From the NCBI GenBank assembly GCA_000092065.1, contig CP000590.1: a DNA stretch of 64,000 bases, one strand, 5' to 3'. The position numbers were made by a program, and so were the translations under genes. The DNA comes from Ostreococcus lucimarinus (taxonomy: Eukaryota). The notes under the pieces were generated by a model that worked only from the letters and a program-made list of their open reading frames with translations, did not search any database and was not told the origin of the DNA. Shown one piece after another: positions 1 through 63,352 of this stretch (positions are counted from its first letter, which is position 1; each line of letters starts with the position of its first letter).

Positions 1-5
1 TTTCA

Positions 6-1169: not shown

Positions 1170-1187
1170 AGGTCGAAACTACACAAA

Positions 1188-16040: not shown

Positions 16041-16081
<41 letters not shown>

Positions 16082-16144
16082 TCGTCGCGTCCATCGTCCT
16101 CGACGCACCGACGCGCGCGCACCGATCGTCCCCGTCGCCAACAT
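14945..16144 (-). CDS. LTO1: Thylakoid thiol-disulfide oxidoreductase LTO1-like: VKOR (vitamin K epoxide reductase) domain fused to a C-terminal thioredoxin-like domain
   Basis: VKOR region with CPVGGC and multiple transmembrane segments. C-terminal Trx-like WCSHC motif. The VKOR-Trx fusion is the plant/cyanobacterial architecture. N-terminal T13 tract inside a transit-peptide-like region. Confidence 0.7.
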
Positions 16145-16446
16145 CGCGCGCCGCCGTTCGCGTCCGCGCTCGCGTCGCGCGCGTCGAGCCCTCGACCGCG
16201 CCGCGCGCCGGCGTCACCGTCCTCGCGCGCGCGCGTCCGCGTCGTCGCCGCTCGCGCGCGCGTCGGATTTTGCGGATAACGCGTCGTCGATTCGTCGATT
16301 CGTCGATTCGCTCGACGCGGCACTCGCGCGCGCCGCGTCGCGCGCGACTCGCGTCGATGCGCGGCGCGGCTCGCGCGCGCGCGCGCGCGAGCCCCGCGCG
16401 CGCGTCGCCTCGCGCGCGTCGCGCGAGGGCGTCGACGACGCGCGCG

Positions 16447-17361: not shown

Positions 17362-17508
17362 TCAATCTCTCAAATCACTCATTCGCGCATCTTTCCGCGT
17401 ATTTAACGCCGGGTCTGGGTCGACGCGCCGGTGACGCCGTGGATTCGATCTCGAACCCGCCGTGCATTAATGTCCGCACTAGTGCGCGCGTCGCCGCGAA
17501 GACGCCCG

Positions 17509-21642: not shown

Positions 21643-24582
21643 TCACCGCGGCTGCGAACGATCTTTCTTCTTGCGCCAGATTGCAAAGTCTTGTCCAGAA
21701 AGCACGCAATCCCACGCGTCGTCTGCATGAAAATGACCAGGTCCAATTTTCATCAAAAGTCGGTCATCGATGACGGCGGCGTACACGCTCTGCTCGCACT
21801 TGACGATTTTCACTTCGCTCCGGCAGTGAATACCGGACTGTTTGCGAATACGAATCATGTCTTCGATGGGTTTGTGCAAATGTCCCCAGTTGTTGTCAAA
21901 GATGTGATCCCAGAAGATTGTCGGCGTGCCCGGGTGGGTCAGGATGTACGCGTATCCTTGAAGCTCTTTGTCGCGAGGAAACCGCCAGTGGCCTTGCGTC
22001 GATCCAGTGTCGTGATTTTCTATGAAAGTCACCGCTCGACTAGGCCACCAACCCATGACACCCGGAGCCTTGCCTGCTTTATCCGATAAGCGCCAATACT
22101 CTTGGCGTTCAAATACGGCGTGCAGGATGCCCTTGGTGGTAACGTCGAACGCGCCGGCGTTTCCGCCGGCGGCGTTGAGCCAGTTCACGATCCGTTGTCG
22201 ATGACCATCTTGGTTGTAATCCAGAGCATCCATGTTATAGGCCAACGAATCCCAGTACTCACCGACCGCGAACTGCGGATTCGTCGCCTCCATGTAATCC
22301 TTCACGTGACCACCCCAGAAACCTCTCACGTAATCGAGTCGCCAACCGTCGTAGCCGACTTCTCGCATGAGCCAGCTCATCCAATCTTCGAGATCAGCCT
22401 TGACGAAAGCTTGATTATGGTCGATATTAGGAGCTGCATGGAACATTTCACCATCGGCTTTGTTTCCTCGGCCATGAAAATTGGGATCGTCTGCCACGAT
22501 GGCTGTCGCGTCCCACGGTAACTTGCCTCCAAACTTGTTGTACGTGCCGGGTACGTCGCCTATGAAATGGGCGCATCGATGGTTAAGCACGGCATCACCG
22601 AGCGCCATCACACCATTATCGTGCAAAGCCTTGATGGCGCCCTTTAATTCTTCCTTTGTGCCGTATCGAGAGTCCAAGTTATAATAATCCAGAGGCATGT
22701 AACCTTGCTCGCTGACGCTCGATGTCGGCGGAGGCAACCAAACCACCGTGAATCCTAGTTCCGCAATGGTGGGTGCAAGTCGCTCGACGGCTTGGTACCA
22801 TGGAGCCTTGCAAGACTCCCAGTTGAAGCCTTGAAGCAAAACTTCCCGACCGTTACCGACGGCTGATTTCTGAGGCTTTTGAATTCGCTCCGCCGGAGCA
22901 AAGTCGTCTTCGCTCAGTGGTGGAGTCGCCACCTCGTACTCGACTTGCATATTCATATCAAGCTCCTTCTCTTCGACTTCATCCATGGAGTCGAGATGCA
23001 ACTCCGCCGCACGAAACGCAGCGGCTGTGGCGACGTCTATCGCTTCCTTAGTCCGCTCACCAGTGAGATCGAGCGTGGTGCTTGCGTACGCCGGCTCGGG
23101 CATGGGAATGACAAAATCGTCGCCATTGCGATCAAGCCACCGTCCTTCTCCACCATTTTCTTTGAGAACAAACCGCATCGCAGTGGGTGCGTTTCCGAGC
23201 TGAAGCTCCGCATAACTCATCTGAATCCGATCGGACAGCGGGTTCTCGCATTTCTTCATGGGAGTCTCGCACGCTTTGCCCGTGTCCCCGACCACTGAAC
23301 CTTCTGGGCGCCATTGTTCCGGAGGCAACGTCCAAACATCCGCACGCGCGCCGCGAGGAACAATACCCCAATGCAAAACAATATTCCACGGAAGTTCAGC
23401 TTCTACACGCACCAAGACTCCACCACCCTCGACGTTCTTTTCCACTACGGCGCCAACTCTATAACTCACTTCTTTCTCGCGAATCAACTTTTCTTCAATG
23501 GTGTTCGTAGTGAGCCAAGGACCCTCCACCAACTTCACCGGCAGCGGTTCATCTATCGACTTAGTGATAGTGCGGGACTTTGTTACCATCCTCTTCACCT
23601 TTCGCATCCCAGTTTTGAGCGTCTTCGGCTTTTCCATGGGAGCCGCTTTGGCCAGTTCAAGTTCCGGTTCAGAGTCCTCATCCTCAGGCGGTCCTTCATC
23701 TCGCGCGGCGATTGGCTTGATAGATGTCAAACCGTTCGAACCAGCGCCAAAAAGTGACTCAACTAAGGCGTTAATATTCTCGTCTTTCGTGTCGAACGGC
23801 TTGGGGTCCACAGGCGGGGTTAGAAGACGTTTCCACGCGTTTGCCGGCTCGGAGATTTCTGACGACGCTGCTGAGACGACTTCCTCCTTGACGGGAGAGC
23901 TCGCGCGCGCGTTCAAATCGATGTTCACTTCGACCACTGATGAAAGTGAGGCGAGAGATTCGTCCAACTCTTGCTCCTCTTGTTCCTCTTCGTATTCTTC
24001 GTCCTCTTCAATCTCTTCCTCATAATCTTCCAGCATAGTAATCGTACGCGTCACTAACTCAGGTTCCGGCGGCTGTGGTATCGGCACGTGCCAATCTCTT
24101 CCGTTCGTGTTATGAATCCAGCGATCTTTCTTTGGTTCTTTGAACAGGAAGTTGATTGCGTAAAAGCCGTCCGCTACGTCACCTTCGATCGTAGCCGTGA
24201 GCGTGGGGCTCAAGCGTGACGACGTCGGCGTCATGCGCGTTTGACATACCCCCGTGGTTTCAATCGTAAACGGCGGTCTAATTTTTACTGGAGGTGTCTC
24301 CATGTTATCCCACGTTTCCTTACTAGTCGCCACGCCCCAATGCATGCGCAAATCTTGCCCTTCGGCGTCCATGTCCGTTTCCACGGTGACCTTGTACTTA
24401 ACACCATTCGTCTCGACCCGAACTTTCACAGAGGCTTCCACGCGCTCGCGCGCCTTGACGACGAAACTTTTCGTGTAAAACTCATCCTTGGCGAATTCAG
24501 CGGCGGCTTCGAGTTCAATCGTCGCCCCTCCCGCTTCTCCTCCGCTCATCGCTCGCGTCGTCGTCGTGGTCCCTCGCGGCAT
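21643..24582 (-). CDS. AMY3: Plastidial alpha-amylase, AMY3-type: N-terminal tandem CBM45-like starch-binding repeats plus C-terminal GH13 catalytic domain
   Basis: C-terminal plant alpha-amylase signature LLQGFNWES...GFTVVWLPPP...GDAVLNHR...DGWRLDYVRG...FVDNHDTG. Two upstream repeats around the HWG motif (RMHWGVATSKETWD and VLHWGIVPRGARADVW) are typical of CBM45. Start taken at the ATG at 24582; upstream sequence is low complexity. Confidence 0.8.
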   Translation of the reverse strand: MPRGTTTTTRAMSGGEAGGATIELEAAAEFAKDEFYTKSFVVKARERVEASVKVRVETNGVKYKVTVETDMDAEGQDLRMHWGVATSKETWDNMETPPVKIRPPFTIETTGVCQTRMTPTSSRLSPTLTATIEGDVADGFYAINFLFKEPKKDRWIHNTNGRDWHVPIPQPPEPELVTRTITMLEDYEEEIEEDEEYEEEQEEQELDESLASLSSVVEVNIDLNARASSPVKEEVVSAASSEISEPANAWKRLLTPPVDPKPFDTKDENINALVESLFGAGSNGLTSIKPIAARDEGPPEDEDSEPELELAKAAPMEKPKTLKTGMRKVKRMVTKSRTITKSIDEPLPVKLVEGPWLTTNTIEEKLIREKEVSYRVGAVVEKNVEGGGVLVRVEAELPWNIVLHWGIVPRGARADVWTLPPEQWRPEGSVVGDTGKACETPMKKCENPLSDRIQMSYAELQLGNAPTAMRFVLKENGGEGRWLDRNGDDFVIPMPEPAYASTTLDLTGERTKEAIDVATAAAFRAAELHLDSMDEVEEKELDMNMQVEYEVATPPLSEDDFAPAERIQKPQKSAVGNGREVLLQGFNWESCKAPWYQAVERLAPTIAELGFTVVWLPPPTSSVSEQGYMPLDYYNLDSRYGTKEELKGAIKALHDNGVMALGDAVLNHRCAHFIGDVPGTYNKFGGKLPWDATAIVADDPNFHGRGNKADGEMFHAAPNIDHNQAFVKADLEDWMSWLMREVGYDGWRLDYVRGFWGGHVKDYMEATNPQFAVGEYWDSLAYNMDALDYNQDGHRQRIVNWLNAAGGNAGAFDVTTKGILHAVFERQEYWRLSDKAGKAPGVMGWWPSRAVTFIENHDTGSTQGHWRFPRDKELQGYAYILTHPGTPTIFWDHIFDNNWGHLHKPIEDMIRIRKQSGIHCRSEVKIVKCEQSVYAAVIDDRLLMKIGPGHFHADDAWDCVLSGQDFAIWRKKKDRSQPR

Positions 24583-25190
24583 CTGTAAACTCTTTGTCCT
24601 CTTCGACTCCCCGAGCTCGAGTCTATCGTCACCGTCCCGTTCACCGACCGTCACCGATCGCGCGCGCGCAAACGTTCGACACCTCGCCCGCGTCGTCGTC
24701 GCGCATCGCGCGCCGCGTCGTCCATCTCTCTCCGCCTTCGCCTTCGCCTTCGCCTTCGTCCCGCCGCGTCCCCGCGCGTCGCGCGTCGTTCCCGCGACGT
24801 TCGCGCGCATCGACTCCATCGCGCGCGAAACACCCGCGCTTTCGTCGACGCTCGCGCGTCCGTCGCGCGCTCGTCGCGACGCGCGCCGAACCGAACGCGC
24901 GCGTCGTTCGATCGGTCGTCGTTCGCGCCAACGCTGTCACGATCGGCGTCGCGTCGTCGCGCGCGCGCTGCGGTGCGGTGCGGTGTCGCTCGCGACGACG
25001 CGCGCGCGCGACGATCGTCGTTCGTCGCGCGCGCTCGCGTGCGGCTCGGGCGTTCGACGCCGCGCGGCGCGAGGGCCAAGATGTGCCGAGGCGCCGGGGC
25101 GGTCGCCGCGCGCGCGTGTTTGAAATGGAGCGCGGGTCGGAGGTCGCGAGCGGTGTTGCGTGCTTACAAGCGAGCGGAAGCGTGATTAGT

Positions 25191-35078: not shown

Positions 35079-36045
35079 ATTTGTAGGCGTATCAAGATGG
35101 AAGGATGGCCATTGAATTTACCGAACGTAAATTATTCTCCCAAAGACGTGTGCGATGGGAAAGACTCAACAGTTCGGAGAGCGAGAAAAACCGCGCAAAG
35201 ATCAGATTTTCCTCGGATTACGGTTCATAATCACAGCAAAACTCAGCTGACACGCATGAATGATTGTTGTGCATTGTTCATCATCGGAATCTCTCTCTCT
35301 CGCGCGTCGCATTCAAGAAAAACCGTCCACCGGTGAGCCGGAAAACGCCGTCGACGCGTCAGACAAGGCTGAATGTTAATCCACAGGAGTGTTCAGACAC
35401 AAACGTATACGTCGTATGGTATATCGTCATCAGCCGCGTCGACATCACGTTCTCCGATCGCCTCACCGCCGCCTCCCTCGCGCGCGTTCCCGGTGTCCTC
35501 CCCGTCGTCGCGTTCCGAAACGGCTCAGTCTTATGCATAATGAGTTCATCGAACAATGGCCACAAAGTCTCGTACAAGAGGTGTCAGAATGTGGTGATCA
35601 TCATCGCCGTTTCGCAATCGCACGCCGTGGTCGCATTTCCTCGCGCGTCGCCCCCTCGCGCGTCCCGAGCGACCGTCCAGACGCCGCGCGAACGATCATT
35701 CACCGATGCAAACCCATCGCCCGCGCGCATCTTCACCGCGCTCGCGCTCTCGTTCGCGCGCGTTCGAGCCATCGCGCGCGCGCCTTCGCACGCACCGTTA
35801 TCGCGCGCACCGCATGGTCGCGTCGTCGTCGCGACGCGCGTCGACGCGCGTCGGAGTGGCGGTCTTCAGTCGCGGCGGCGGCACATCGCGACGACTCGAC
35901 GCGACGCGACGCGACGCGACGCGCACGACCCGCGGGACGACCGCGCGCGACCGCTCGAGATCGAGCGCGCGACGTCCGTCACCAGTCCTCACCGTCGCGA
36001 GCGCGTCGAACGCGAGCGAACGCGCGAGGCGCGAGTGGCGGCGGC

Positions 36046-37746
36046 ATGGGTGGCGGCGGCGAAGCGAAAAAGGCGAAAAAGGAAAAGCGCGCGAAGCGCG
36101 ACGGCGACGACGGCGAAAGGAAGAAGAAGGCGAAGAAGAGTAAAAAGACCGACGCGGGAGCGGGCGATGCGGACGATTCGAGCGGGCGCGAAACGCGCGA
36201 GGAGGAGGCGGTGGAGAGAATCGAAGCGCCGGTGGATGGAATACTGAGCGAGACGACGTTCGAGTCGCTCGAGTTGAGCGCGCCGACGATGAAAGGGATC
36301 GAACAGATGGGATTTAAGACGATGACCGAGGTACAAGCGCGGTGTGTGCCGCCGTTGCTGGCCGGGAAGGATGTGTTGGGGGCGGCGCGGACGGGGAGCG
36401 GAAAGACGCTGGCGTTTTTGGTGCCGAGCGTGGAGTTGTTGTACCACGCAAAGTTCATGCCGAGAAATGGGACGGGAGTGATGGTGCTGTCGCCCACGCG
36501 TGAATTGGCGCTGCAGATTTACAACGTCGCGCAACAGCTGATGGAGAAGCACTCGCAGACGCACGGATTAATCATCGGAGGCGCGAATCGACGCGCCGAA
36601 GCCGAACGCTTGATCAAGGGCGTCAACTTGCTCGTCGCCACGCCTGGACGGTTGCTGGATCACATGCAGAACACTCGTGGATTCACGTTTAGCTCGCTCA
36701 AGGTGTTTGTCATGGACGAAGCCGATCGCATGCTCGATATCGGGTTCGAGGAGGAGATGCGAACCATCGTGAAAATGTTGCCAAAGGAGCGGCAGACGAT
36801 GCTGTTTAGCGCGACGCAAACCACAAAGGTTGAAGATTTGGCGCGCTTGTCGTTGAAGAGTCCGATTTACATCGGCGTTGACGACTCGCGCGCGGTGTCC
36901 ACCGCCACGGGCGTCGAGCAAGGGTACTGCGTCGTCCCGAGCGAGCAAAGGTTTTTGCTCTTGTTTACGTTTTTGAAGAAGAACTTGAAGAAGAAAATTA
37001 TGGTTTTCTTTTCGTCGTGTAACTCGGTCAAGTATCACGCCGAATTGTTGAATTATATCGACATTCCCGTGAGCGACATTCACGGCAAGCAAAAGCAACA
37101 GCGAAGAACGACGACGTTCTTTGAGTTTTGCAAAGCCGACCGCGGCGTTTTGTTGTGCACCGACGTCGCGGCGAGAGGCTTGGACATCCCCGCGGTGGAT
37201 TGGATCATTCAGTACGATCCTCCAGACGACCCAAAGGAGTACATTCATCGCGTCGGGCGCACGGCGCGAGGGACGGACGGAAAAGGACGCGCATTGCTCT
37301 TCTTGATTCCAGAAGAGTTGTCGTTTTTAAAGTATCTCAAGTCGGCGAAGGTGCCGCTCAACGAGTACGAGTTCCCGACGAAAAAAATCGCCAACGTGCA
37401 GAGTCAGTTGGAGAAACTGGTGGAGAAAAATTATTACTTGCACACCAGCGCGCGCGACGCCTATCGAGCGTACATTCTGGCCTACAACTCGCACACGCTC
37501 AAGGATGTGTACAACGTGCACGCGCTCGACCTCAACGCCGTGGCGAGCTCGTTCGGTTTCCACAAACCTCCCAAGGTCCAACTCAACCTGGACTCCAAGG
37601 CGAGCAAAGGGCGCACGAAATCACGAGGCGACGGCGGTCCGGGAAGCGATTACCGTCGCCAGAAAGGCACCGGTCACAATTTTAGCGCGGAAAATCCATA
37701 CGGTAAAAAGGATTCGAGCGATTCGCGTCAATTCGTACGCATGTAG
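36046..37746 (+). CDS. HAS1: ATP-dependent DEAD-box RNA helicase HAS1/DDX18 (nucleolar ribosome biogenesis)
   Basis: Near-identity to HAS1 core: [53 protein letters not shown]...PTRELALQ...[16 protein letters not shown]...[18 protein letters not shown]...HRVGRTARG. First ATG at 36046 ([12 protein letters not shown]...). Confidence 0.88.
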
Positions 37747-51706: not shown

Positions 51707-51846
51707 TAAGTAAGGCGTTAATGAATAATAAGGCGTCGCGCGCGTCTTTGTATGGGTCGGTCGGTCGGTGTCGCGTCGCGTCCTTCGCGCGTCCACGGCG
51801 TTCGCGACGCCGAAATCCGCGTCGCACGACGACGCGGATTTCGGCG

Positions 51847-53949
51847 ATGCTGACGGTGGCGCGCGCGTGTCGACGGCGCGCCGCGCGCGCGGTCCGGCGC
51901 GGCGTCGCGGACGCGCGCGCGACGCGCGGGGCGTCGACGACGACGGATCGCGCGTGGGACACATCTTCATCATCTGCGTCGGCGTCGGCGCGGACGTCGA
52001 CGGCGCGGACGACGAGGCGCGGACGGGCGACGGAGCGCCTGGCGTTCCGCGCGGAGACGAAACGATTGCTGGACATCGTGACGAACTCGCTGTACGAGGA
52101 CAAGGAGGTGTATCTGCGAGAGCTGGTGTCGAACGCGAGCGACGCGCTGGAGAAGGCGCGACACGCGGCGCTGACGGAGACGCCGAACGAGGAGGAACTC
52201 GCGATAAAGATCGCGACGGATGAGGGCGAGGGGAAGGTGCTGGTGGTGTCGGATAACGGGGTCGGGATGACGCGGGAGGAGCTGATGGAGAATTTGGGGA
52301 CGATCGCGCGGAGCGGGAGCAAGGCGTTTTTGGAGGGGTTGGACGCGGACGCGGACGCGGCGTCGAACATCATCGGGAAATTCGGCGTGGGGTTCTACGC
52401 GAGTTTCATGGTGAGCGATAAGGTGGAGGTGATCTCGAACGCGGGCGCGCGAGGGGATGGGAAGGCGTGGAAGTGGAGCTCGACCGGGGATGGAGAGTTT
52501 ACGATTGAGGAGGCGACGGAGAGCGACGAGGCGCCGACGCGGGGGACGAAAATCGTGATGCACATCAAAAGCGACGATAAACACTTGACGTCCAAGTGGG
52601 GGGTGGAGACGGTGCTGAAAAAGTACAGCTCGTTCGTCGCGTTCCCGGTGCTGTTGAATGGGCACAAGATGAACGACGTCGGGGCGCTTTGGATGAAGGA
52701 TGAAAAGGACATAACCGACGACGATTCCATCGCGTTTTACCGCTTTGTGAGCGGCGCGAGCGACATGCCGCCGTTTCGCATGTCGTTCAAAGCCGATGCG
52801 CCCATGACGATTCGAAGCTTGCTGTACTTTCCCGAAGAAAATCCCGAACGCGTCGCCGGATTCGGCGGGCAGACGAATTCGGGCGTGTCGCTGTACGCCA
52901 GGCGCGTGATGATTCAAGAGAAGACGGAAAAATTGCTCCCGGCGTTTTTGCGCTTTGTGCGCGGCGTGGTCGATTGCGAAGACATCCCGCTGAACATCTC
53001 GCGCGAGTCGCTTCAAGATTCCATGCTCGTCATGCGGCTCGGCCAAATAATCACAAAGCGCGTGCTCAAGTTTTTGGATGAAAAGGCGAAGAAGGAGCCG
53101 GAAAAGTACAACAAATGGTTCGCCAATCTCGGCTTCTTCTTGAAGGAGGGCGTGTGCTCGGAGTACGCGTACAAACTCGAACTCGCAGAGCTGTTGCGTT
53201 ACGAATCGAGCTCGACGGAGACTGGAAAATTGACGTCTTTCCGCGAGTACGCCGCGCGCATGCCCGAGGGACAAGACAAAGTGTATTACATCGTCGCGCC
53301 GTCGCGGCTGCAAGCCGAAGCGTCGCCGTATTTGGAAGCGGCGAAGTCGCGGGGCTACGAAGTTTTGTTCTTGTACGCTCACATCGATGAGTTCGTGATG
53401 CAGCACTTAATGAGCGTCGCGGGCAAGCAATTGGTGAGCGTTGAAGCCGCAAATCTCGACGTCGACGGCGAAAAAGCCGACGGTGAAGAGTCAAAATCAA
53501 ACGACGCCGCGGCGTTGGACGACGCCGCGGGCGCGGAACTTTGTAAGTGGTTCAGCGACGACGCTCTCGCGGGAAAGCTCAAGGAGGTGAAGCTGAGTAA
53601 CAGATTGGTGAGCTCTCCCGCGCTCATCTCCGGACACGAGCCCGAAGCCATGAGACGGTACCGCATGGTTCAAACCATGGCGAGCGACGCGGCGGCGAGT
53701 AAAAAGCTCGCCGAGATGTCCAACGACTTCTCCATGATGACGCTCGAGTTGAATCCGAAACACGAAATGATCAAAAGGATCAACGCCGCGCGCACGAGCG
53801 AAGACGCCGGCACGCGAAGATTAGCCGCGCTGGTCGCCGAACAAATATTTGACAACGCGCGCGTCGCCGCGGGATCTTTAGACGATCCTCGAGCGATGCT
53901 CGGTCGTCTGAACGAAATTCTCGAAAAGACGCTTCCGGCGAAGGAGTAG
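51847..53949 (+). CDS. TRAP1: Mitochondrial HSP90 paralogue TRAP1
   Basis: Extended collinearity with TRAP1: FRAETKRLLDIVTNSLYEDKEVYLRELVSNASDALEKARH, GTIARSGSKAF, IGKFGVGFYASFMV, LRFVRGVVDCEDIPLNISRE, KLTSFREYAARM, NPKHEMIKRIN, DPRAMLGRLNEIL. Arg-rich presequence. Start at the first ATG 51847; the ORF-track start at 51721 is non-ATG. Confidence 0.9.
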   Translation: MLTVARACRRRAARAVRRGVADARATRGASTTTDRAWDTSSSSASASARTSTARTTRRGRATERLAFRAETKRLLDIVTNSLYEDKEVYLRELVSNASDALEKARHAALTETPNEEELAIKIATDEGEGKVLVVSDNGVGMTREELMENLGTIARSGSKAFLEGLDADADAASNIIGKFGVGFYASFMVSDKVEVISNAGARGDGKAWKWSSTGDGEFTIEEATESDEAPTRGTKIVMHIKSDDKHLTSKWGVETVLKKYSSFVAFPVLLNGHKMNDVGALWMKDEKDITDDDSIAFYRFVSGASDMPPFRMSFKADAPMTIRSLLYFPEENPERVAGFGGQTNSGVSLYARRVMIQEKTEKLLPAFLRFVRGVVDCEDIPLNISRESLQDSMLVMRLGQIITKRVLKFLDEKAKKEPEKYNKWFANLGFFLKEGVCSEYAYKLELAELLRYESSSTETGKLTSFREYAARMPEGQDKVYYIVAPSRLQAEASPYLEAAKSRGYEVLFLYAHIDEFVMQHLMSVAGKQLVSVEAANLDVDGEKADGEESKSNDAAALDDAAGAELCKWFSDDALAGKLKEVKLSNRLVSSPALISGHEPEAMRRYRMVQTMASDAAASKKLAEMSNDFSMMTLELNPKHEMIKRINAARTSEDAGTRRLAALVAEQIFDNARVAAGSLDDPRAMLGRLNEILEKTLPAKE

Positions 53950-54055
53950 ACGCGTCGCACGTGCGAGAATCGTAGCGACCTAACAACACATTATTTAATC
54001 GATCACAACGATCCTTGACGCTATTCGCTCAAACGTCGCCGAAGCCTCGCGCGCG

Positions 54056-55027
54056 TCAGCAGAATTTCCACCGGTTGCCGCACTCGACACACGTCACGAA
54101 TGTCGTCATAGGTTCATCCGCGGAGCGCGTCTGCAGTTGATAATACGTGCACTTGCGCTGTTTGCACTTGCCGCACTTGAACGCGTCCGTGCTGGCTTCT
54201 TGTTGTTGCCCGCGCACGGCTTCCCACTCCGCCAACTCGCGAATGCGCTCGTTCGCGTTCCGTCGCTCGTTCGAACCCAACTCTTCGGGAGACAAATCGA
54301 TCAACACCCCCGCACTAATCTCACCGGTCGCTAAGTTGGTGCGCAGATCCGGATTCTTCGCATCCTTGAGATTGAAGGCCAACTGCCGCACTTTCGCCTT
54401 GTAATCCTTGCCGCCGCTCGGCCACTTCGCCGTCATCGAGTTCTCAATCTGATCCACGATCGACGCCAACTTTTTCGCATCCACGCTCTCAATCTTACCA
54501 TCCGTCACGCACAGCGCCAACGCGTCGGCGAATATTTCCCGCGTTCGATCCCTCGCCGCGTCGTTCACGCGCGTCAACCGCTTCTTCACATCCGCCCTCG
54601 CCTCGACCAACGCCGCGTCCTCCTCCTCCCCCCCACCGCGCTCTTTCGCCGCCGTCTCGACCTCGCGCTTCACCTCCTTCGTTTTCTCGCTCTTCCCGCT
54701 CGTCTGTTCGACGATCATCGCCGTCCATCTCGCCTTGACCGCCGCCGCCGCGTCCCGCACGCCCTCCGCCTCGTGTCGCTTTCGCAGCTGATTCACAATC
54801 TTCCCGCACGCCGCGAACCGCGCGTCCAGGAGCGTCTCCCTCGGCAGCGCTTCCTTCGACAGCGTCAACACCCGTCGCAGCGCGTCCACCGCTCGGCCGC
54901 TCTCCCCCGCCTTCGCGTCTCGCGCCGCTCGACACAGCGTCGCGATCGTCTCGAGCGAACCCTCCCGCGCGTCTTCGTCCGCCGTCCGCGCGTCGCTCGC
55001 GCCTTCTTCGCCGCCGTCGACCGCCAT
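54056..55027 (-). CDS. TFIIS: Transcription elongation factor TFIIS (S-II)
   Basis: C-terminal zinc ribbon FKCGKCKQRKCTYYQLQTRSADEPMTTFVTCVECGNRWKFC. Central domain (RNLATGEISAGVL...LSPEEL). N-terminal LW domain. First ATG at 55027. Confidence 0.8.
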   Translation of the reverse strand: MAVDGGEEGASDARTADEDAREGSLETIATLCRAARDAKAGESGRAVDALRRVLTLSKEALPRETLLDARFAACGKIVNQLRKRHEAEGVRDAAAAVKARWTAMIVEQTSGKSEKTKEVKREVETAAKERGGGEEEDAALVEARADVKKRLTRVNDAARDRTREIFADALALCVTDGKIESVDAKKLASIVDQIENSMTAKWPSGGKDYKAKVRQLAFNLKDAKNPDLRTNLATGEISAGVLIDLSPEELGSNERRNANERIRELAEWEAVRGQQQEASTDAFKCGKCKQRKCTYYQLQTRSADEPMTTFVTCVECGNRWKFC

Positions 55028-55342
55028 GTCGACGCCGGTCGTTCGCACGCGCGCGCGACTCCGCGCGAGCGCCGCGACGCGCGACGGATCGCGACGCGAC
55101 GCGTCGATGAGTGACGACGCCGCCGCGATCGGGGGAACGACCGCCGTCGTTTCGACGCGGCGTCGCCGCAGAGCGCGACGCCGCGCCGCGCGCGACCGCC
55201 GTCTCGCCGCTCGAGCGCTCGGAAACGGTCAAACGTAAAATCCTTCGCGCGTCGACGCGCTCGAGCGGCGCGACGCGCGCGACGAGACGCGTCGAATCGC
55301 GCGAAAAGACGAAAGACGACGGTTGGTGTCGCGGCGCCGACG

Positions 55343-56188
55343 ATGGCGCCGCGACGCGCCGCGCGGCGACCGGCGACGACGGCGGCGACGACGATGACGC
55401 TGGTCGTGATCACCGGACCGTGCGCGGGACGAGAGTTCGAGCTGCGTCGCGACGGCGAGAGCGCGATCGGGCGAACGAAGCGAGGGAACGCGGTGTGGAT
55501 CAAGGGCGACGGCGCGGTGTCGCAGTCGCACGCGACGTGCCGGTGGTGCGCGAAACGCGAGGCGTGGACGATCTCGGACGCGGGGTCGTCGAATGGGACG
55601 GAAGTGGACGGGAAGGACGTGGAGGAGGGAGGCGAGGGGGCGACGCTGAGGGATGGGAGCGTGATTAAATTGGGGACGGAGACGACGGTGGTGTGCCGAA
55701 CGCGAGCGGCGGACGAGAGGGGCGAGGCTGGAACGGTGGGTGAGGAGGAAGATGAGGAAAACGGAAATCGTGAAAACGCAGTCGTGGTGAACGAGGGAGG
55801 TCGAGGCGCGGTCGGCGACGGCGGAAAGGCGTCGGCGGCGAAGACGAAGAGCGGCAAGCGAGACGCGTACGCGTTCGATTTGGACGAACCGAAATCGGTG
55901 ACGAAAGTCGCCGCGGCGCGGAAACGCGCCAAGGCGACGACCGTGACCGCGAAACAAGCGCACGAGTCGACGACTGCGGCGAGCGAAACCGCGGAGGTTG
56001 CGACGAAGGCTGAGTCCCGAGCCGCCGCCGAAGTCGGCTTCGACGTTCCCACCGTGCACGAGTACGCCACCGCGCAGCTCGAGCGCCTGCAAGCCGTCAT
56101 TCGCGCCGACGCGCGCGCCAGCGTCGAAGCCTTTCGCGCCGACGCGCGCGGATTGCTCGCAGACCTTCTCCAGGACATCAAAGCGTAG
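55343..56188 (+). CDS. FHA (forkhead-associated) domain protein with acidic/lysine-rich C-terminal half
   Basis: FHA core: LVVITGPCAGREFELRRDGESAIGRTKRGNAVWIKGDGAVSQSHATCRW...WTISDAGSSNGTEVDGKDV...GSVIKLGTETTVV. Confidence 0.6.
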   Translation: MAPRRAARRPATTAATTMTLVVITGPCAGREFELRRDGESAIGRTKRGNAVWIKGDGAVSQSHATCRWCAKREAWTISDAGSSNGTEVDGKDVEEGGEGATLRDGSVIKLGTETTVVCRTRAADERGEAGTVGEEEDEENGNRENAVVVNEGGRGAVGDGGKASAAKTKSGKRDAYAFDLDEPKSVTKVAAARKRAKATTVTAKQAHESTTAASETAEVATKAESRAAAEVGFDVPTVHEYATAQLERLQAVIRADARASVEAFRADARGLLADLLQDIKA

Positions 56189-56454
56189 CGCGCGCGTCCG
56201 CGCCAATCGGCGCCGAGCCAGCTGGCGACATTCGCGCCGCGCGCGCCGTCGTCCATCACCCGACGCCGCATGTAACACCGCACCCATTCAATTCGCACGA
56301 AACACTCTCGATTTAATATTTTCTAAACCACCAGAGCGCATCTCGCGCCTCGTCGACCGCGCGCGTCGCGCATCCGCGTCGCGCGCTCGGCGACGTCGTC
56401 CGCGGCGCGCGCCGAACGACTGCGACACTTCGCGGCGCGGCGCCGCCGCGCGCG

Positions 56455-59163
56455 ATGTCGAGCCTCGTCCGCGCGCTGTCGCGACGCGTCAGTCGCGCGG
56501 CGCGCGAGGCCGCGGACGCCCCCGAAGACGCGCCCGCGCCCTCGGCGCCGCCGTTGAGCGCCGAAAGCGCCGACTCGGCGAACGACCACCTGACACCGTC
56601 GCCCGCGCAAGAAATGACGAAAACCGCCGCCGCCGACGGCGACGCGGCGTCGAGCGACGCGGAAGAGACCGCGCTCGACGCCGGCGAGGTTATTCTCGAG
56701 CGAGACGACGCCAGGGTGCCGGTGCTGCTGAAGCAAACGTCGTCGACGCTGCTGCCTCGCGACGAGGCGAAGAGGCTCGAACGAATGTTGTCGACGGATG
56801 TGCGGGACATGATGGCGAAGGAGGTGTGGGCGTGTCGACCGTCGACGTTCATCAGACTCACGATGCGGGCGCCGGTGCTGATGATGATTTTGTCGATTAT
56901 TTTTTGGGTGGCGGCGGGCGCGTACGCGCTGGTGCGGAAACCGCCAAAGGTGGAGACGGATGTCGCGGGATTTAGCATTCGCGATCATCCCACGGCGAGG
57001 CTTAAGGATGCGATTTGGAGCGCGGAGAGTGAGTCGGAGTTTAATTGGGACGCCATGTTGACCGCGGGTGGGTCGGCGAGCGTGGGGACGATTCCGTACG
57101 TGACGAGTTGGCTCGATTCGGGTGGATATTTGACGTCGCCTTCGGCGGTGCGAAAGATGCGTCGATTGCAATCGTACGTCGCGACAGAAAGACCGAGCTC
57201 ATATAGTTCGTTTCAGCTCGTTTACACGTCCACGCGTGGGGAGAATGTGTTACGCGAGGAGGTGATGAAATTCGCGTTGGATTTGGAGGGCAAAATTACG
57301 CGACTCCCGGGCTACGCAGAGACGATGTGCTTGCAGATCGCAGACACGGAGTATTTAGGCTCGAACGGATGCACGCCGCCAAATTCCATAGCACCTTTAT
57401 TCTTCGCGACGACGGTGAGCGGGACTTACTACAGAAATACCGTCGATGTCACCATGAGTTTGGCGTCGAGGGGGTTGTATGTCTACGTCGACAAGGATTT
57501 CGACGCCGCGAACGGCACCGCGTCGTCGTTTAGAACGAGCTTTCCAATCGGTCAGCCTAGTAAGGCAGTGTGGAAAAAGTGGATGAAGAGCACTCTAGTT
57601 CCGTTTTTACGAGCAAACACGAGAGATGAGGCAAAAGGCATTCGATGTCTCTATGGGGGCAAAGAAATCACCCAGTATGAAGCCGATTTGGCAATCTTGC
57701 ACGACGCGAAACTCATCATTGCCGGCTTGTCGCTCGTGGTCGTGTACACATACTTTCACACCGGCTCTGTTTTCATCACGTTTGCGGGAATATTTGAAAT
57801 TATTCTATCTTTTCCCGTCGCGTACGCGTTTTACGCATACGTTTTGAAGTTGGAGTCGATTAGCGTGATGCAGTTTTTGGCGATTTTCATCATACTCGGC
57901 ATCGGCGTCGACGACGTCTTTGTATTTTACGATTCTTTCGAGGATGCTTCGCGCGCCGTGGGGATACGCGGTGACACCCTCGAAGCACGATTAAATTATG
58001 CTTATGATCACGCTGGAAGAGCGATGCTGGTGACTTCGATGACTTCAGGCGCGGCATTCGCCGCAAACCTCGCCTCCGCCATTCCGGCGGTGCAAATATT
58101 TGGTGTCTTTATCGCTGTGATGGTTTTGGTAAATTACTTCCTCGTCATCACCTGGTTTCCCGCATGTTTGTGCGCGTACGAGCGATACTGGCGAGTTTCC
58201 AAAGATTTCAACTATTGTGGCCTCGGAGGCTTGCGTACGAAGCACCTCCCTTCCGCTGAAATGGATGCTCGCGCGGCGCAACGCGCCGAATCTTGTTTGA
58301 GCTGCATCAAGCGTGTCGCTTGCTTTGGTCAAAAGTTGAACCAATATCAAAACGTCATGGCAGCGCAAAAGAAGAAACGTTCGATCTTTACATGGAGAAC
58401 TTACGGTGCATACTTGGATGTTTTCAAGTACATCTTGCTCGTCATTTGCCTCGGATCGATGGCAGTGACTGGATATTTCTCAACCAAGACGGAGGCGAGC
58501 GGGCAACCGCCAGAGCTGTTTCCGGCAGACTCGAATCAGCAAATGTTCATCAAGTGGACGGAATCGCAATTCGAGAGCGATAAATTCGCCTGCACGAGCT
58601 TTGCGCACTGTCAGCAACAGGCTGGGACTGTGCTACAGCAAAACGGTGTGACGCTGTCGCCGCCGCCACCGTCGCCGTCTCCTCCTCCTCCTCCCAGGTC
58701 GCAAGTCGGAACCATCACTTCTCCAGAGATTGATCAATTAGCAGACGTAGTATTCAATACTTTCGACAGCGACGCGAATGGTTGGCTGGACACGACGGAG
58801 TATGACTCTTTCGCAGCGGCGGTAACGACGACGACGAGCCTACCACCCGCGAACACCGTGATGAGCGCGTACGGCACGCCGCAAGGTGTCACAAAACCGG
58901 GATTTGTTCTCGCCCTGGATACAGCTGCTGGCGTAAACGACGCACCGGTACTAGATGCGTATTCGCTCCTCGTCTTAGGCACAGCAAGATCGAGCCCTCC
59001 TCCACCAAGTCCACCGCCGTCACCCCCGCCTTCGCCGCCGTCACCGCCGCCACCCCCGCCTTCGCCGCCGTCACCGCCGCCGCCGCCGTCACCGCCGCCA
59101 CCCCCGCCTTCGCCGCCGTCACCGCCGCCGCCGCCGTCGCCGCCACCGAGTTCCAATCCATCA

Positions 59164-59195
<32 letters not shown>

Positions 59196-60777
59196 GTCAC
59201 CGCCGCCGCCGCCGTCACCGCCGCCGTCACCGCCGCCGTCGCCGCCGCCGCCGCCGTCACCGCCACCGTCGCCACCGCCGCCGGAGGCGCTCCAAGCTGC
59301 CGAGCGCGTCGCGGGGACGAATTACGAAAAGGCGCAACTCGTGTGGGGCATCGAAGATATTCAAGACGATTCTGCGCCATATGCTCCGCGAGAGGTTGAC
59401 GCTAATCCGGTGGTCAACCCCGCGTTTAACATCGGCGACCCCACGACTCAAGTCCGCATGTTGAAGTTCTGCGAAGCGTTGCAAAACAGAACGGACCTCG
59501 CGAGTTCGTTTAAGGAGTGCCCGATGCAGATTCTCAAAAACGTTGGAACGACGCTTTCATACCCTTGGCCGATGAGCTCGGCGCAAATCTTAAGTGTCAT
59601 CACGTCCATCGCGACGCAGAATCCCGGGTACAGAAAAATCTACGGCTTACAGACGGTGACGTCGGGCGGCGCCTCCACCCAACGCGTCGCTTGGGTCAAG
59701 GCGAACTTCTTGTCGGGGATTCCATTTCGAATGTCGGCGACGAAGCTTGAACAAGAATATTTCAAGTTTCTCGATTTCATCGCCGAGTTTGAAGCAACAA
59801 CGTTTCAGTACTCCGCGACGAATGCGAACGGGTCGGTGACGCTCCATTCCGCCCCTCCCACGGCGTCGGCGACAGTGAGAGTGACCTCCGAGTGTTGGGT
59901 GCGCATGGCAACGGAGCTGCAAGCCATTCGAGGCACGGTGAGCTCGATCGCAGTGTCCCTCGCGTTTGCCGTTTTCGCCACGCTCATTTTCACCGGCGAC
60001 GTCTTTGTGGCTCTCATGGCGCTGCTGAGCATGCTCGCCATCATCCTCGCCGTCATCGCGATTCTAGTCGCGCTCAAGGTGAAGTTTGGCATCGTCGAAG
60101 CGATTTCGCTCACAATTCTCGTCGGCATCTCTGTCGACTTCAGCTTGCACTTGGCCGAGTCGTTCACGCGCTCACACTTCACGAGTCGCGGCTTGCGCGG
60201 CGTCGACGCGGTCTCGCGCGTCGGTTATCCGATTTTCTCCGCCGCGATGACGACCATGTCCGCCGTCATACCGATGCTTTGGTGTCAAGTCCAAGTTCTC
60301 GTGCGCTTCGGACAAATCATTCCTCTGTGCATCGTGATGTCGTTGGTGTACGGCGTACACTTCTTCCTCCCGATGCTCATGTCGTTCGGGCCCAACGTTC
60401 CCGGCGGCGGCGCCGGAAAATGGTTGTGCCACATGGGAAAGCTTCCCGGCTTGCTCTTCAGCACGCAAACTCGCCGCATGATTTTCCTCGTCGCCTCCGG
60501 CATGATCTTCGGCTTTTTGCTCCCCGCCACGCGCGCGCTCCTGTACGAGGACGGCGGCTCCGCCTTCGCCGTCGTCGCCGGCGGCTTCGCCTTCCTCTCC
60601 GCCGTCGCCGTCTTCGTCGAGCGACGATGTCATCTCCGCGCCGTCGCCGCCGCCGACCCCTCCGCGCGGTCCCACGTCGCTCGCGCCGCTCGACTCGCCG
60701 CCGCTCGACTCGCCGTCCCCGCCCCGCGTCCGCGTCCCGTCGACGCGCGACCTTCGCCTTTGCCCTCGCGCGCGTGA
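56455..60777 (+). CDS. RND-superfamily membrane protein with sterol-sensing domain (Patched/Dispatched/NPC1-like 12-TM topology). Its large second extracytoplasmic loop carries a canonical EF-hand and an extensin-like (S)Pn block.
   Basis: SSD signature GIGVDDVFVFYDSF. Second RND repeat with ISLTILVGISVDFSLHLAESF. Multiple predicted TM helices. EF-hand loop DSDANGWLDTTE (58769..58804). (SPPPP)n at 58990..59283. Confidence 0.7.
58990..59283 (+). repeat. Coding proline-rich repeat ((S)P3-5 extensin-like, ~100 residues) inside the RND/SSD gene
   Basis: SPPPPSPPPSPPPSPPSPPPPPPSPPSPPPPPSPPPPPPSPPSPPPPPSPPPSSNPSSSPPPSPPPPPSPPPPPSPPPSPPPSPPPPPSPPPSPPPP read in frame. Confidence 0.85.
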
Positions 60778-61045
60778 AAACACTTCAGACTTTTTTTCCC
60801 GCCAAAAAGCGAGTCGACGTCATGGCGAACGCGTCGCGCGTCATCGCGTCACTCTCCCGCGCGTGTCATCGCGCTTCGCGCGCCGCGACCGACGCGCGCG
60901 ACGCGCCTCGGACGCTCGCGTCGACGACGCCCGCCCCTTCGCGCGTCGCGATCGCGCGTCGAATCGCACGCGCGATCGATTCGAATCGATTGTTTAAACA
61001 ATCTTATCGCGTCGCGTCGCGATCGCGATCGCGCGGCGCGACGCG

Positions 61046-61795
61046 ATGTCGAGCGCGCGCGCGACGACGCGCGCGACGATCGCGTCGAGGTCGGTGACGG
61101 CGAGGCGCGCGCTCGGCGCGAGGGCGGCGCGAAAGACGACGCGGCGACGCGCGAAGGGCGACGAGGCGACGACGGCGGAGACAGCGCTGGCGGCGACGAA
61201 TCCGACGGATAAAAAGTACGTCGCGTTGAACGGGGTGAAACTGGTCGTGGACTTTGAGATGCACTACGAGACGAAGTTTGGGGAGACGGTGTGCGTGCTG
61301 GGGAGCCACGAGGCGATGGGGGCGTGGGAATTGGAGCGGGCGACGGCGCTGGAGTGGCACGAGGGGTCGGTTTGGAAGCTGAGCGTGGAGTTGCCGGCGG
61401 GGGGGGTGTTCTTTTACAAGTACATCGTCAAGGGCGCGAACGGTGAGGTGTTGCGGTGGCAAGACGGAAGTAACTCCATGCTCGTGCTTCCGGAGAGCTG
61501 GAACGTGCCGAACGGATCGCACTACCTCGTCGAGGATAACTTTGCGGGCGTGCCGAACGAAACGACGGAGATTTCCGAACACTTGCTCGCGGGTAAGCTC
61601 GTGGACGCGCAAGGCGAAAAGACGCAATTGTTGCAACAACTCGAGGTGCAAAAGACGATGACGCAAACCGCGCTCGAAGAACTTTTGCTCGCGCGCGAAG
61701 ATCTCGCCAGAGCGCAATCAAAGTTGTTGTCGGCGTCTTCCGAAACCGCCGCCTACGACGTCAACAATGGCAACCAAAACGGATTCTCCCGCTAA
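61046..61795 (+). CDS. CBM20 starch-binding domain protein with C-terminal coiled coil, plastid transit peptide
   Basis: CBM20 fold signature KYVALNGVKLVVDFEMHYETKFGETVCVLGSHEAMGAWELERATALEWHEGSVWKLSVELPAGGVFFYKYIV...EVLRWQDGSNSMLVLPESW. Then heptad-rich LLQQLEVQKTMTQTALEELLLAREDLARAQSKLL. N-terminal S/T/R/A-rich presequence. Confidence 0.7.
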   Translation: MSSARATTRATIASRSVTARRALGARAARKTTRRRAKGDEATTAETALAATNPTDKKYVALNGVKLVVDFEMHYETKFGETVCVLGSHEAMGAWELERATALEWHEGSVWKLSVELPAGGVFFYKYIVKGANGEVLRWQDGSNSMLVLPESWNVPNGSHYLVEDNFAGVPNETTEISEHLLAGKLVDAQGEKTQLLQQLEVQKTMTQTALEELLLAREDLARAQSKLLSASSETAAYDVNNGNQNGFSR

Positions 61796-61942
61796 TTGCG
61801 CGCCGCGAGGCGCCGCAACCGTCGATACTTTCAAGCAACGCGATAAACTGTATTTCAACGAAGTAATATCCAAGTCAAGCAGAATCATTTCAACATTAAA
61901 CGTTTCTTTCTTCTAACGCATTCGCCTCGAGCGCGCGGCGCG

Positions 61943-63352
61943 TCATCGAGCGTCTAGCTTTTCACGAATCGCGCGCACGACCTCTTCCGCATTCGCCTTC
62001 GCGGACACTTTCCCAGCATCGATTGTATCCGGAATTGGGGCGGGAAACGGCGGAAGGAAACTCAAACCGGCTAAATTTTGTGCCCACTTGTACGGCTTGG
62101 CGTTGGATGGCGCGCACGAAGCGTCAAACGTAAAATTGGGTGCCACCACGGCGACGGCGTGATTCGGCATCTCAGACCCGTCGTCATCTGGAAACAATTC
62201 TCCGAGAAATTTCTCATCTTCCGGTTTCGATGACACGACGACGACGTGTAATTTCGTGAGATAGGTGAAGAAAACTTTCGTAGCACCAAAGCCGACCTCG
62301 ACTCGGAGTGGATGTTCCTCATATAACGACGACGACGCACTCGCCGCTTGCCGCCCGCCCCTCGCTTTCCGCTTTTTGCTTCTACGATTATTCTCAGCAC
62401 CTTCGTCCACGAGTTCGCCCTCCTCTTCGCTTGCCTTTTTCTGCTTGAAATTTTGCGCGTCGTCGATTCTCCCCACCAGTTCGACTTTGATTTCCTCTTC
62501 GTTCTGCTGCAAGTGCTTCAACTGCGCGTACAGCACGTGCAACGGCACTGGAAGTAGTCCGATCCGCGCGTCGAGATCTTCCGTGCTCGCGTACGCGAGA
62601 TCAAACATTCGCCTCAACGGTTCGGCAGATTTGCGCACATTCGTCATCGTCGCCTCTAAACTCCCCCCCAACAGCTTCTTCTTCTCCGCTACCTGTTGTT
62701 GTAACGCCGCTAACTCCGCTTTCAACGCGTTTTGTTCCTCTACCATCTCCCTCCGCACGATGAGCTCGTGCGCTAACCGTCGCGTCATCAGTTCGTATTC
62801 GTCCCGCGGCTTCTTCGTCGGCAAACCGCGTCTCTTGGCGTCCGCCTCGTACTCCTTCAATTCCATCAACTCGATCCCTCCCGCGCTCACTCCCCCACCA
62901 CTTCCCTCTGCATCCGCGTGTCGCTTCAGCGCGCTCTCTCGCCACGCTGTCTCGTACGCCACCGTCGCCGCGCGCACTCGCGCCGGGTCCGTTTCCTTGT
63001 CCCGCCGCCGCGTCCCCGCCTTGAGGTATTCCAGTCCCATCAACGCTCGCCTCTGCGCCGTTCGCACGCTCGCGAGCGTCTTCATGCACGTCTCTACGGT
63101 AGGTTTACGCGCATCGCTCGTCTTCGTTCCCTCTTCGACGAGCTGCGCGACGTTTTCGCGCAATTCTTGCGTGAGCTCTTGAATCAGCTCAAACTGTGCT
63201 TCGGTGCTCTCGGGCGTCGCATCCTCGGCGTTGGGCGCGGGCGAGGGCGCGCCGACGCGCGAAGGGACGTCGAGAGACGTCGTCGTGCGATGGGCGGCGA
63301 CGGGGGAGGTTGGTTCGCTCGGTGCGCTCGCGGCGCGCTTGCGCGGCGGCAT
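61943..63352 (-). CDS. Coiled-coil protein, possibly THO complex subunit 5 (FMIP)-like
   Basis: 469-aa ORF. Long heptad regions and a conserved-looking LPVPLHVLYAQLKHL segment. Assignment to THOC5 is by gestalt only. Confidence 0.3.
   Translation of the reverse strand: MPPRKRAASAPSEPTSPVAAHRTTTSLDVPSRVGAPSPAPNAEDATPESTEAQFELIQELTQELRENVAQLVEEGTKTSDARKPTVETCMKTLASVRTAQRRALMGLEYLKAGTRRRDKETDPARVRAATVAYETAWRESALKRHADAEGSGGGVSAGGIELMELKEYEADAKRRGLPTKKPRDEYELMTRRLAHELIVRREMVEEQNALKAELAALQQQVAEKKKLLGGSLEATMTNVRKSAEPLRRMFDLAYASTEDLDARIGLLPVPLHVLYAQLKHLQQNEEEIKVELVGRIDDAQNFKQKKASEEEGELVDEGAENNRRSKKRKARGGRQAASASSSLYEEHPLRVEVGFGATKVFFTYLTKLHVVVVSSKPEDEKFLGELFPDDDGSEMPNHAVAVVAPNFTFDASCAPSNAKPYKWAQNLAGLSFLPPFPAPIPDTIDAGKVSAKANAEEVVRAIREKLDAR

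Follow-up and report, generated by a model that had tools for sequence, protein, structure and literature searches.

A complete coding sequence at positions 56455..60777 (+ strand) of a 64,000-nucleotide stretch of the Ostreococcus lucimarinus genome (GenBank assembly GCA_000092065.1, contig CP000590.1; hereafter the window) forms the subject of this analysis. It consists of an uninterrupted open reading frame (ORF), stop codon included, and encodes a Dispatched-like resistance-nodulation-division (RND)/sterol-sensing domain (SSD) protein of 1440 amino acids (aa), which starts MSSLVRAL in the program-made ORF list. A sequence-only reading of the stretch had assigned the product to the two-repeat RND/SSD proteins on the basis of two motifs, and this assignment holds: both motifs are present, GIGVDDVFVFYDSF in transmembrane helix (TM) 4 and ISLTILVGISVDFSLHLAESF in TM10, and membership of the eukaryotic SSD-containing RND group (Patched/Dispatched/NPC1) was confirmed using Pfam, hydropathy, AlphaFold2 (AF2) and Foldseek, with the SSD recognised in TM2-6 and a 6+6 two-repeat topology. 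Both relevant Pfam models scored above their cut-offs, Sterol-sensing (PF12349) at aa 439-577 (E=1.8e-17; 64 bits against 22.3) and Patched (PF02460; E=2.9e-14; 53.6 bits against 23), while the NCBIfam models for NPC1 (53 vs 1016 bits) and Patched (44 vs 1120 bits) scored far under theirs. Comparison against the PDB using phmmer gave mouse and human DISP1 as the best matches (E=6e-38 to 4e-35), followed by fly Disp (7e-29), with NPC1L1 and NPC1 (1e-13 to 1e-15) and PTCH1 (~1e-9) forming a second tier; the bit scores of DISP1, NPC1L1 and PTCH1 were 133, 57 and 38, respectively. The best-scoring named animal homologues were likewise DISP1, DISP3 and PTCHD2. The homologue search was repeated with the Ser/Pro blocks removed from the query, as the full-length query, swamped by Pro-rich words, gave 8 matches. 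The homologues derive nearly all from marine metagenome assemblies, no named Ostreococcus, Micromonas or Bathycoccus orthologues occur among the matches listed, and an exact look-up of the 1440-aa protein retrieved no recorded gene with such a product. An AF2 core model of aa 135-1334, built from a 20-sequence alignment, had a mean predicted local distance difference test score (pLDDT) of 73 and a predicted template-modelling score (pTM) of 0.65. Its top eight Foldseek matches in the PDB were all Dispatched structures (E 3.5e-28 to 5e-19; target-normalised template-modelling score 0.63-0.68), followed by NPC1L1, NPC1 and PfNCR1, and then by PTCH1 and MmpL, with E-values of 1e-15 to 1e-18 for the NPC1/NPC1L1/PTCH1 group. 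Dispatched is thus the nearest RND/SSD subfamily by both sequence and fold, as measured by search scores. Overall, the gene product is probably a Dispatched-family RND/SSD membrane transporter, with 12 predicted core TM helices, two ectodomains, a probable extra C-terminal TM hairpin and a cassette inserted in its second ectodomain (ECD2).

The protein begins with a low-complexity region of cytosolic type (~139 aa), which precedes TM1, and lacks the N-terminal sterol-binding domain of NPC1. TM1 (aa 140-161; 56872..56937, + strand, as are all features of the gene given below) was delimited by hydropathy and corresponds to helix 6-27 of the AF2 core model. It is followed by the first ectodomain (ECD1; aa 162-402; 56938..57660) with C292 and C306, by TM2-TM6, which constitute the SSD (aa 403-579; 57661..58191; PF12349, aligned to DISP1 TM2-6), by a cytosolic TM6-TM7 linker with a net charge of +10 and 20% Lys plus Arg (aa 580-650; 58192..58404), and by TM7 (aa 651-676; 58405..58482; hydropathy and AF2 core model). 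The whole of ECD2, between TM7 and TM8, spans aa 677-1145. Its proximal part (aa 677-734; 58483..58656) includes the conserved residues N694, Q696, F698, W701, C713 and C719 and stops at the insertion point, while in its distal part (aa 944-1145; 59284..59889) the stretch GTNYE..VWGIED aligns to DISP1 ECD2 and the invariant C1006 and C1022 are found. The cassette sits between the stretches aligned to DISP1 TM6 and to DISP1 ECD2 (aa 961-1015 of the query matching 617-669 of DISP1). It comprises a short Ser/Pro linker, SPPPPSPSPPPPP (aa 735-747; 58657..58695; pLDDT<50), a paired EF-hand module with a canonical loop, a degenerate loop and an extra C-terminal helix (aa 748-845; 58696..58989), and a 98-aa (S)Pn tract (aa 846-943; 58990..59283) that is 82% guanine-cytosine (GC), incorporates imperfect 18/30/48-nt repeats and is modelled at pLDDT<50 and without secondary structure. 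TM8-TM12 (aa 1146-1311; 59890..60387), placed by alignment, hydropathy and AF2, make up the second RND repeat. Hydropathy further distinguished two extra hydrophobic segments past TM12 (aa 1345-1388; 60487..60618), which are conserved in the full-length algal orthologues. With charges of +4 ahead of them and +8 behind, these segments are compatible with a hairpin that starts and ends in the cytosol, which would probably give the algal protein 14 TM helices as opposed to the 12 of animal Dispatched. The TM7-TM8 loop is predicted to be extracytoplasmic, at the cell surface or in an organelle lumen, and not cytosolic, because of its homology to the solved DISP1, the distribution of charges according to the positive-inside rule (C-terminal tail +8; EF-hand module -8 with 3% Lys plus Arg) and the four ectodomain cysteines C292, C306, C1006 and C1022, which are invariant even in comparison with animal Dispatched.

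Three intramembrane Na+ ions are coordinated in mouse DISP1 by D571, D572, D1049, T610, S611, T613, T614, T1087 and T1088 (10.1101/2020.09.05.284026). HMMER alignment to DISP1 identified D486, D487, D1228, T527, S528, T530, S531, T1266 and T1267, in the same order, as their algal counterparts, with eight of the nine positions identical and one (1/9) showing a Thr-to-Ser replacement. D486 and D487, the equivalents of the Na+ ligands D571 and D572, lie in the TM4 motif GIGVDD (aa 482-487; 57898..57915) and are invariant in the homologue alignments, while D1228, the equivalent of the ligand D1049, lies in the TM10 motif GISVDFSLH (aa 1224-1232; 60124..60150). Variation at these nine positions is absent or minimal, both among the algal orthologues and in 20 diverse homologues. 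On the basis of these conserved Na+-site residues, the protein can be expected to function as a cation-coupled Dispatched-type transporter.

The EF-hand module is marked by a single PROSITE PS00018 match in the whole protein, DSDANGWLDTTEY at aa 771-783, which was identified by regular-expression scan. A match arose in 21 of 20,000 composition-preserving shuffles (~0.1%), and the pattern was also matched in 4/5 lineages tested. The canonical 12-residue Ca2+-binding loop within it, DSDANGWLDTTE (aa 771-782; 58765..58800), incorporates D771, L778 and E782, which are invariant in the full-length orthologues. A profile constructed from six orthologous EF-hand modules (A1) matched secretagogin, calbindin and calmodulin in the PDB at E-values of 1e-14 to 1e-7. 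The isolated module was modelled by AF2 with a pLDDT of 87 and a pTM of 0.82 (pLDDT 80-91 in the full-length context), as two helix-loop-helix units whose loops are joined by a short antiparallel beta bridge (helix 9-23, beta 30-31, helix 33-43; helix 52-59, beta 64-66, helix 67-80) and a further C-terminal helix. Its top Foldseek matches are nearly all EF-hand proteins, including calmodulin, Miro, sorcin, centrin, CDPK and calpain (template-modelling score 0.5-0.6). The module is thus a real, folded, paired EF-hand domain as far as sequence and model can tell, with Ca2+ binding predicted at one loop. An exhaustive profile search with the module retrieved 4240 EF-hand proteins, among which the only single-stretch, full-length module matches were fragments of the same Dispatched-like family, which gives no indication of an identifiable donor protein for the module.

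Across six lineages the loop retains its ligand positions (1, 3, 5, 8 and 12). The window protein and its P0001 cluster (99% identity) carry DSDANGWLDTTE, while DANADGWLDTNE is found in P0051 (80%; 1408 aa), DADSNGWLNNTE in P0073/P0065 (54%), DKDGDGELSYAE in P0010/P0081 (~37%), DENGDGDLSHDE in P0110 and DDDDDAALDATE in P0012/P0091 (~36%). No variation is seen at positions 1, 8 and 12, Asp and Asn alternate at positions 3 and 5, and position 6 is Gly in 5/6 lineages; the YG of the partner loop is likewise invariant across the orthologues. The retention of ligand positions through Asp/Asn swaps points to selection for Ca2+ coordination, and indicates, at the level of sequence, purifying selection on Ca2+ binding by the module. 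Furthermore, the order of the cassette is identical in at least six lineages, with a Pro-rich linker of ~10-14 aa, the EF-hand module and a Pro-rich tract of ~97-160 aa. Thus the EF-hand proposed in the sequence-only reading is genuine, paired and conserved, and it is retained together with the Pro-rich insert down to ~36% identity. The genes encoding P0010 (locus L001) and P0012 (locus L003) share the order HSP90/TRAP1-TFIIS-gene-THOC5 with the window, with an FHA gene also present in L001, and are therefore positional orthologues of the window gene. The neighbouring TRAP1/HSP90 is 79% identical to that of Ostreococcus tauri, 52% to that of Mantoniella and 97-99% to abundant metagenome clusters, values that point to a member of the Ostreococcus clade other than O. 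tauri. The nearest full-length homologue, P0051 (80%; locus L002), is found in a different neighbourhood from that shared by window positions 51721-63352, L001 and L003. It is flanked by UQ_con, PAP and tRNA endonuclease genes upstream and chorismate-binding, UbiE and HDAC genes downstream, none of which occur in the window, which suggests a relocated or paralogous copy in a sister species.

More distant relatives carry other cargo in the same TM7-TM8 ectodomain. The Pseudoscourfieldia marina protein RI054_06g31780 (P0003) incorporates FN3 domains at aa 694-773 and beyond and a ~1400-aa insert, while Cymbomonas tetramitiformis CYMTET_19866 (P0022) contains a PF00756 esterase at aa 789-941. In both proteins Pro-rich tracts flank the insert and the transporter core is 29-32% identical. 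These thus differ from the window protein in the presence of FN3 or esterase domains where the latter has an EF-hand pair, and the occurrence of unrelated inserts in one ectodomain makes the site look like a domain-insertion hot spot with interchangeable cargo.

The Pro-rich tract (aa 846-943) begins 63 residues past the end of the EF-hand loop and consists almost exclusively of Ser and Pro (97/98 residues; 73 Pro, 24 Ser and 1 Asn), arranged as SP2-SP6 units. No comparably long Ser/Pro tract is found in any frame of the 64-kb window. The shorter linker (aa 735-747) lies directly upstream of the EF-hand module, which is thus Pro-bracketed on both sides, a feature overlooked in the earlier reading. 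CCG accounts for 77% of the Pro codons in the tract, compared with 42% elsewhere. No Tyr, Lys or Val occurs in aa 846-943, and YXY and VYK cross-linking motifs are therefore absent. Anchored at its start as well as its end in one ectodomain, the tract makes a closed loop instead of a free stalk. A length of at least ~95 aa is maintained in every orthologue. However, the distant orthologues contain a heterogeneous Pro-rich tract (~61% Pro, 8% Ser), with strict SPn units only in the Ostreococcus-like clade. The earlier description of the tract as extensin-like Ser-Pro(3-5) is therefore accurate for the SPn units of the window protein, but neither extends beyond this clade nor includes the extensin cross-link motifs. 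Run ERR1719506 (source 'merc') contains a fragment that matches aa 529-647 of the window protein without a difference.

The best sequence and fold match among known systems, animal Dispatched (DISP1; Drosophila Disp), shares with the algal protein the 12-TM two-repeat RND core, the two ectodomains and their cysteines, the TM4 GxGxDD and TM10 GxSVDFxxH motifs and the nine Na+-site residues. Overall identity is only ~15-30%, and the ~210-aa ECD2 cassette and the two hydrophobic segments past TM12 occur in the algal protein only. The cargo must also differ, as the algal host is without a Hedgehog pathway (PMC9222137). Animal Dispatched releases lipid-modified Hedgehog and is activated by furin cleavage of ECD1; no sign of such a cleavage site came to light in the algal protein, although no search aimed at it was made. 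NPC1, NPC1L1 and PTCH1 belong to the same superfamily, with an SSD in TM2-6 and the same topology, but similarity to these proteins is much weaker than to Dispatched, and the N-terminal domain of NPC1 has no equivalent in the algal protein. A paired EF-hand located outside the cytosol at millimolar Ca2+ is also found in the extracellular Ca2+-binding (EC) domain of BM-40/SPARC, where Ca2+ is structural and not a signal. However, no specific sequence link to BM-40/SPARC was detected, the module profile matching generic EF-hand proteins, and the algal EF-hand pair is inserted in the loop of a polytopic transporter, with one of its two loops canonical. Contiguous Ser-Pro(3-6) units in an extracytoplasmic segment are shared with chimeric extensins and volvocine hydroxyproline-rich glycoproteins (HRGPs), but the algal tract is without Tyr cross-links and forms part of an internal transporter loop instead of a signal-peptide-led soluble protein. 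A published catalogue of chimeric extensin (EXT) proteins covers O. lucimarinus (PMC4769139), and its eight EXT-like entries for this species do not include the Dispatched-like protein. Catalogue entry 24979, an O. lucimarinus chimeric extensin, was considered as the same protein and rejected as unrelated.

A model of function can be inferred from these features. A cation gradient, probably of Na+, would most likely power export, with hydrophobic cargo pulled from the membrane and handed outward via the ectodomains; this cargo may be a sterol, another lipid or a lipid-anchored surface molecule. Some 60 residues past TM7 the chain passes through the 13-aa Pro-rich linker into the ~98-aa EF-hand pair and returns to the ectodomain by way of the ~100-aa (S)Pn tract. 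The Pro-rich tracts may act as extended, flexible tethers, perhaps hydroxylated and O-glycosylated in a mucin- or HRGP-like manner, which would give the EF-hand module reach and add to a surface glycocalyx, with no wall anchoring. The module would be held by its short N-terminal linker at most a few nanometres from ECD2, with slack and bulk supplied by the long tract. Seawater contains ~10 mM Ca2+, and since the loop would face millimolar Ca2+ either there or in the lumen of the secretory pathway, the EF-hand is most likely permanently Ca2+-loaded. It would then represent a Ca2+-stabilised structural or docking module for cargo, acceptor or partner, and not a sensor. In its most specific form, the model would describe, for the Hedgehog-less mamiellophyte picoalgae, a Na+-driven Dispatched-type exporter whose EF-hand serves as a Ca2+-dependent docking arm held on polyproline tethers with glycans, where the arm captures an extracellular acceptor or lipid-anchored cargo and the release of sterols, lipids or lipidated proteins depends on it. 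This full combination is a decidedly speculative proposal and improbable as a whole; if true, it would offer a mechanistically informative, pre-metazoan counterpart to the way in which DISP1 hands over to Scube2, and would add a component to the disputed surface coat of Ostreococcus.

A number of results weigh against the interpretation of the protein as an exporter with a Ca2+-binding outer module. No Pfam EF-hand model matches the full-length 1440-aa protein even at E<=1, and when the module (aa 748-845) is scanned alone, EF-hand_6 (E=0.08; 13.1 bits) and EF-hand_7 (E=0.17; 12.7 bits) fall short of their gathering thresholds of 25 and 30, respectively. The orthologous P0010 module, scanned alone, does pass the threshold of PF13499 (EF-hand_7; 34.9 bits vs 30; E=2e-8), but full-length P0010 again scores under threshold. 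Recognition by PF13499, which the sequence-only reading had suggested as a check, therefore holds for an orthologous module and for neither the window module nor the full-length proteins. The low full-length scores account for the omission of the EF-hand from the precomputed annotation of the algal Dispatched-like family and, for annotators, composition correction hides the domain from routine Pfam annotation. The Foldseek E-values of the module are also weak (at least 0.2), which can be ascribed to the small size of the domain. The partner loop (..SAYGTPQGVTKPGF..) is without acidic ligands, and a single Ca2+ site is therefore likely. As regards the tract, it evolves fast in length and composition, and its CCG skew and 18/30/48-nt periodicity suggest growth by repeat slippage, so that part of its length may be neutral. 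The MMETSP transcript P0077, which follows the P0010 gene across the EF-hand module and the first 19 residues of the tract, maps nowhere in the locus past residue 875, where it is probably an assembly chimera, and the whole tract is thus not spanned by a transcript. Unicellular eukaryotes are reported to lack the Hedgehog pathway (PMC9222137), as green algae do, and animal Dispatched is therefore no guide to the cargo. Finally, an internal-membrane location like that of NPC1, with variable luminal Ca2+ and a sensing role for the EF-hand, is possible.

Two of the rival explanations concern the status of the cassette itself. The Pro-rich block could represent an unspliced intron or an assembly artefact outside the protein, a prospect already raised in the sequence-only reading. 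All three forward frames are open in the GC-rich repeat, and the metagenome models P0001, P0046, P0065, P0013 and P0014 break exactly at the block, where they truncate ('...SLSLIHI') or frameshift into Arg-rich sequence. Such breaks at a CCG-rich tract are attributable to assembly difficulty and not to an intron. As a result of these breaks, most members of the Dispatched-like algal family appear in public protein collections as half-length fragments. By contrast, four loci from independent assemblies have an unbroken ORF through the tract (~97-160 aa), and at least seven length variants from different strains (1514, 1518, 1523 and 1526 aa; 1617, 1627 and 1628 aa) are all in frame downstream of it. 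The tract is present in every orthologue, with the downstream half in the same frame, and the P0077 transcript runs into it in frame. The block is thus coding and kept in the orthologues, and an intron or artefact is extremely improbable. Alternatively, the cassette may be an evolutionary passenger, in which a permissive loop accommodates a domain and a CCG repeat prone to slippage, neither of them functional. The repeat periodicity, skewed codons and rapid change in length and composition of the tract would be expected of such a passenger, as would the unrelated FN3 and esterase inserts in the same ectodomain of Pseudoscourfieldia and Cymbomonas. It would not readily explain why the EF-hand module persists in six lineages to ~36% identity with an invariant YG and with its ligand positions kept via Asp/Asn swaps, or why the asymmetric layout of short N-terminal linker and long C-terminal tract, the latter of at least ~95 aa, is conserved everywhere. 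This explanation is considered very unlikely.

The remaining alternatives differ in where the protein would act and what Ca2+ would do. The sequence-only reading had envisaged a wall- or scale-anchored, Ca2+-responsive exporter or receptor, with a Hyp-O-glycosylated tract of extensin type and an EF-hand that senses Ca2+. In its favour, the loop with the EF-hand and the tract is extracytoplasmic. An outward-facing EF-hand in seawater with ~10 mM Ca2+ would be saturated and stay loaded, which speaks against a Ca2+-responsive role. The SP3-SP6 units do resemble those arabinosylated in Chlamydomonas and plant HRGPs, but the tract of the distant orthologues is Pro-rich without being SPn (8% Ser), the YXY/VYK motifs that define structural extensins are missing, and with the tract ends fixed in one ectodomain and the EF-hand module on a 13-aa linker there would be no free stalk for anchoring. 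GT77 enzymes of the RRA and XEG113 clades, putative extensin arabinosyltransferases, have been reported in all analysed algae including prasinophytes, while the GT75 UDP-Ara mutase is reported missing in the latter (PMC3797821). Ostreococcus cells have been described as without a discernible matrix, and with no wall or scales by microscopy, so that the clade is conventionally regarded as naked, although this nakedness has been questioned (PMC3355577). Anchoring to a wall or scales is accordingly not upheld, nor is Ca2+ responsiveness, and their combination is most doubtful. The protein may instead be an intracellular NPC1-like sterol or lipid transporter of a vacuolar, lysosome-like or endoplasmic reticulum/Golgi membrane, whose EF-hand links transport to luminal Ca2+. 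Topology alone fits the cell surface and an organelle lumen alike, luminal Ca2+ is more variable than that of seawater, and NPC1 and NPC1L1 are second-best by structure and sequence. However, Dispatched is ~20 orders of magnitude ahead of NPC1 by sequence and also ahead by fold, the NPC1 N-terminal sterol-binding domain is lacking, and tracts of this long, Pro-rich, HRGP-like kind usually belong to proteins that are secreted or exposed at the surface, which leaves an intracellular NPC1-like role unlikely, if somewhat less so than the other three explanations.

Literature searches gave nothing specific on Dispatched-like proteins in green algae, and no description was found of an EF-hand pair in the ectodomain of a Dispatched-type or RND/SSD protein, nor of the mamiellophyte family. 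SSD/RND proteins are known in protists and green algae but, like the Chlamydomonas PTCH homologues, are unstudied (PMC9222137). Dispatched is known almost only as the pump for Hedgehog release in animals, and the host here is among the smallest free-living eukaryotes. A Dispatched-type protein with a complete set of Na+-site residues in a Hedgehog-less alga supports the notion that the transporter is older than its morphogen cargo, and provides a minimal setting, genetically tractable in O. tauri, in which to ask what Dispatched-type pumps export. The occurrence of EF-hand, FN3 and esterase domains at the same site suggests modular customising of the outward end of these transporters, while the (S)Pn tract is a candidate in the question of an HRGP-like coat in 'naked' Ostreococcus.

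Immediately downstream, a gene at 61046-61795 (+ strand) encodes a small protein with a CBM20 starch-binding domain (PF00686, E=2.7e-18); no counterpart was detected at the matching position of L001, the orthologous locus. Positions 21646-24819 (- strand) encode an alpha-amylase whose N-terminal domain is Ig-like and of GWD type. A plant-type C/D-box small nucleolar RNA, snoR1 (RF00345; 66 bits; E=5e-12), is located at 35522-35608 (- strand), antisense in the 5' end of the ORF at 35389-37746 (+ strand). The latter encodes a DEAD-box/SPB4-like helicase in which the recognised domains begin only at residue 313. The rest of the window genes are ordinary nuclear housekeeping genes. The GC content of the window swings from ~51% to ~70% over a few kb when calculated in 2-kb bins, with 51% at 1-4000 and 70% at 16001-18000.

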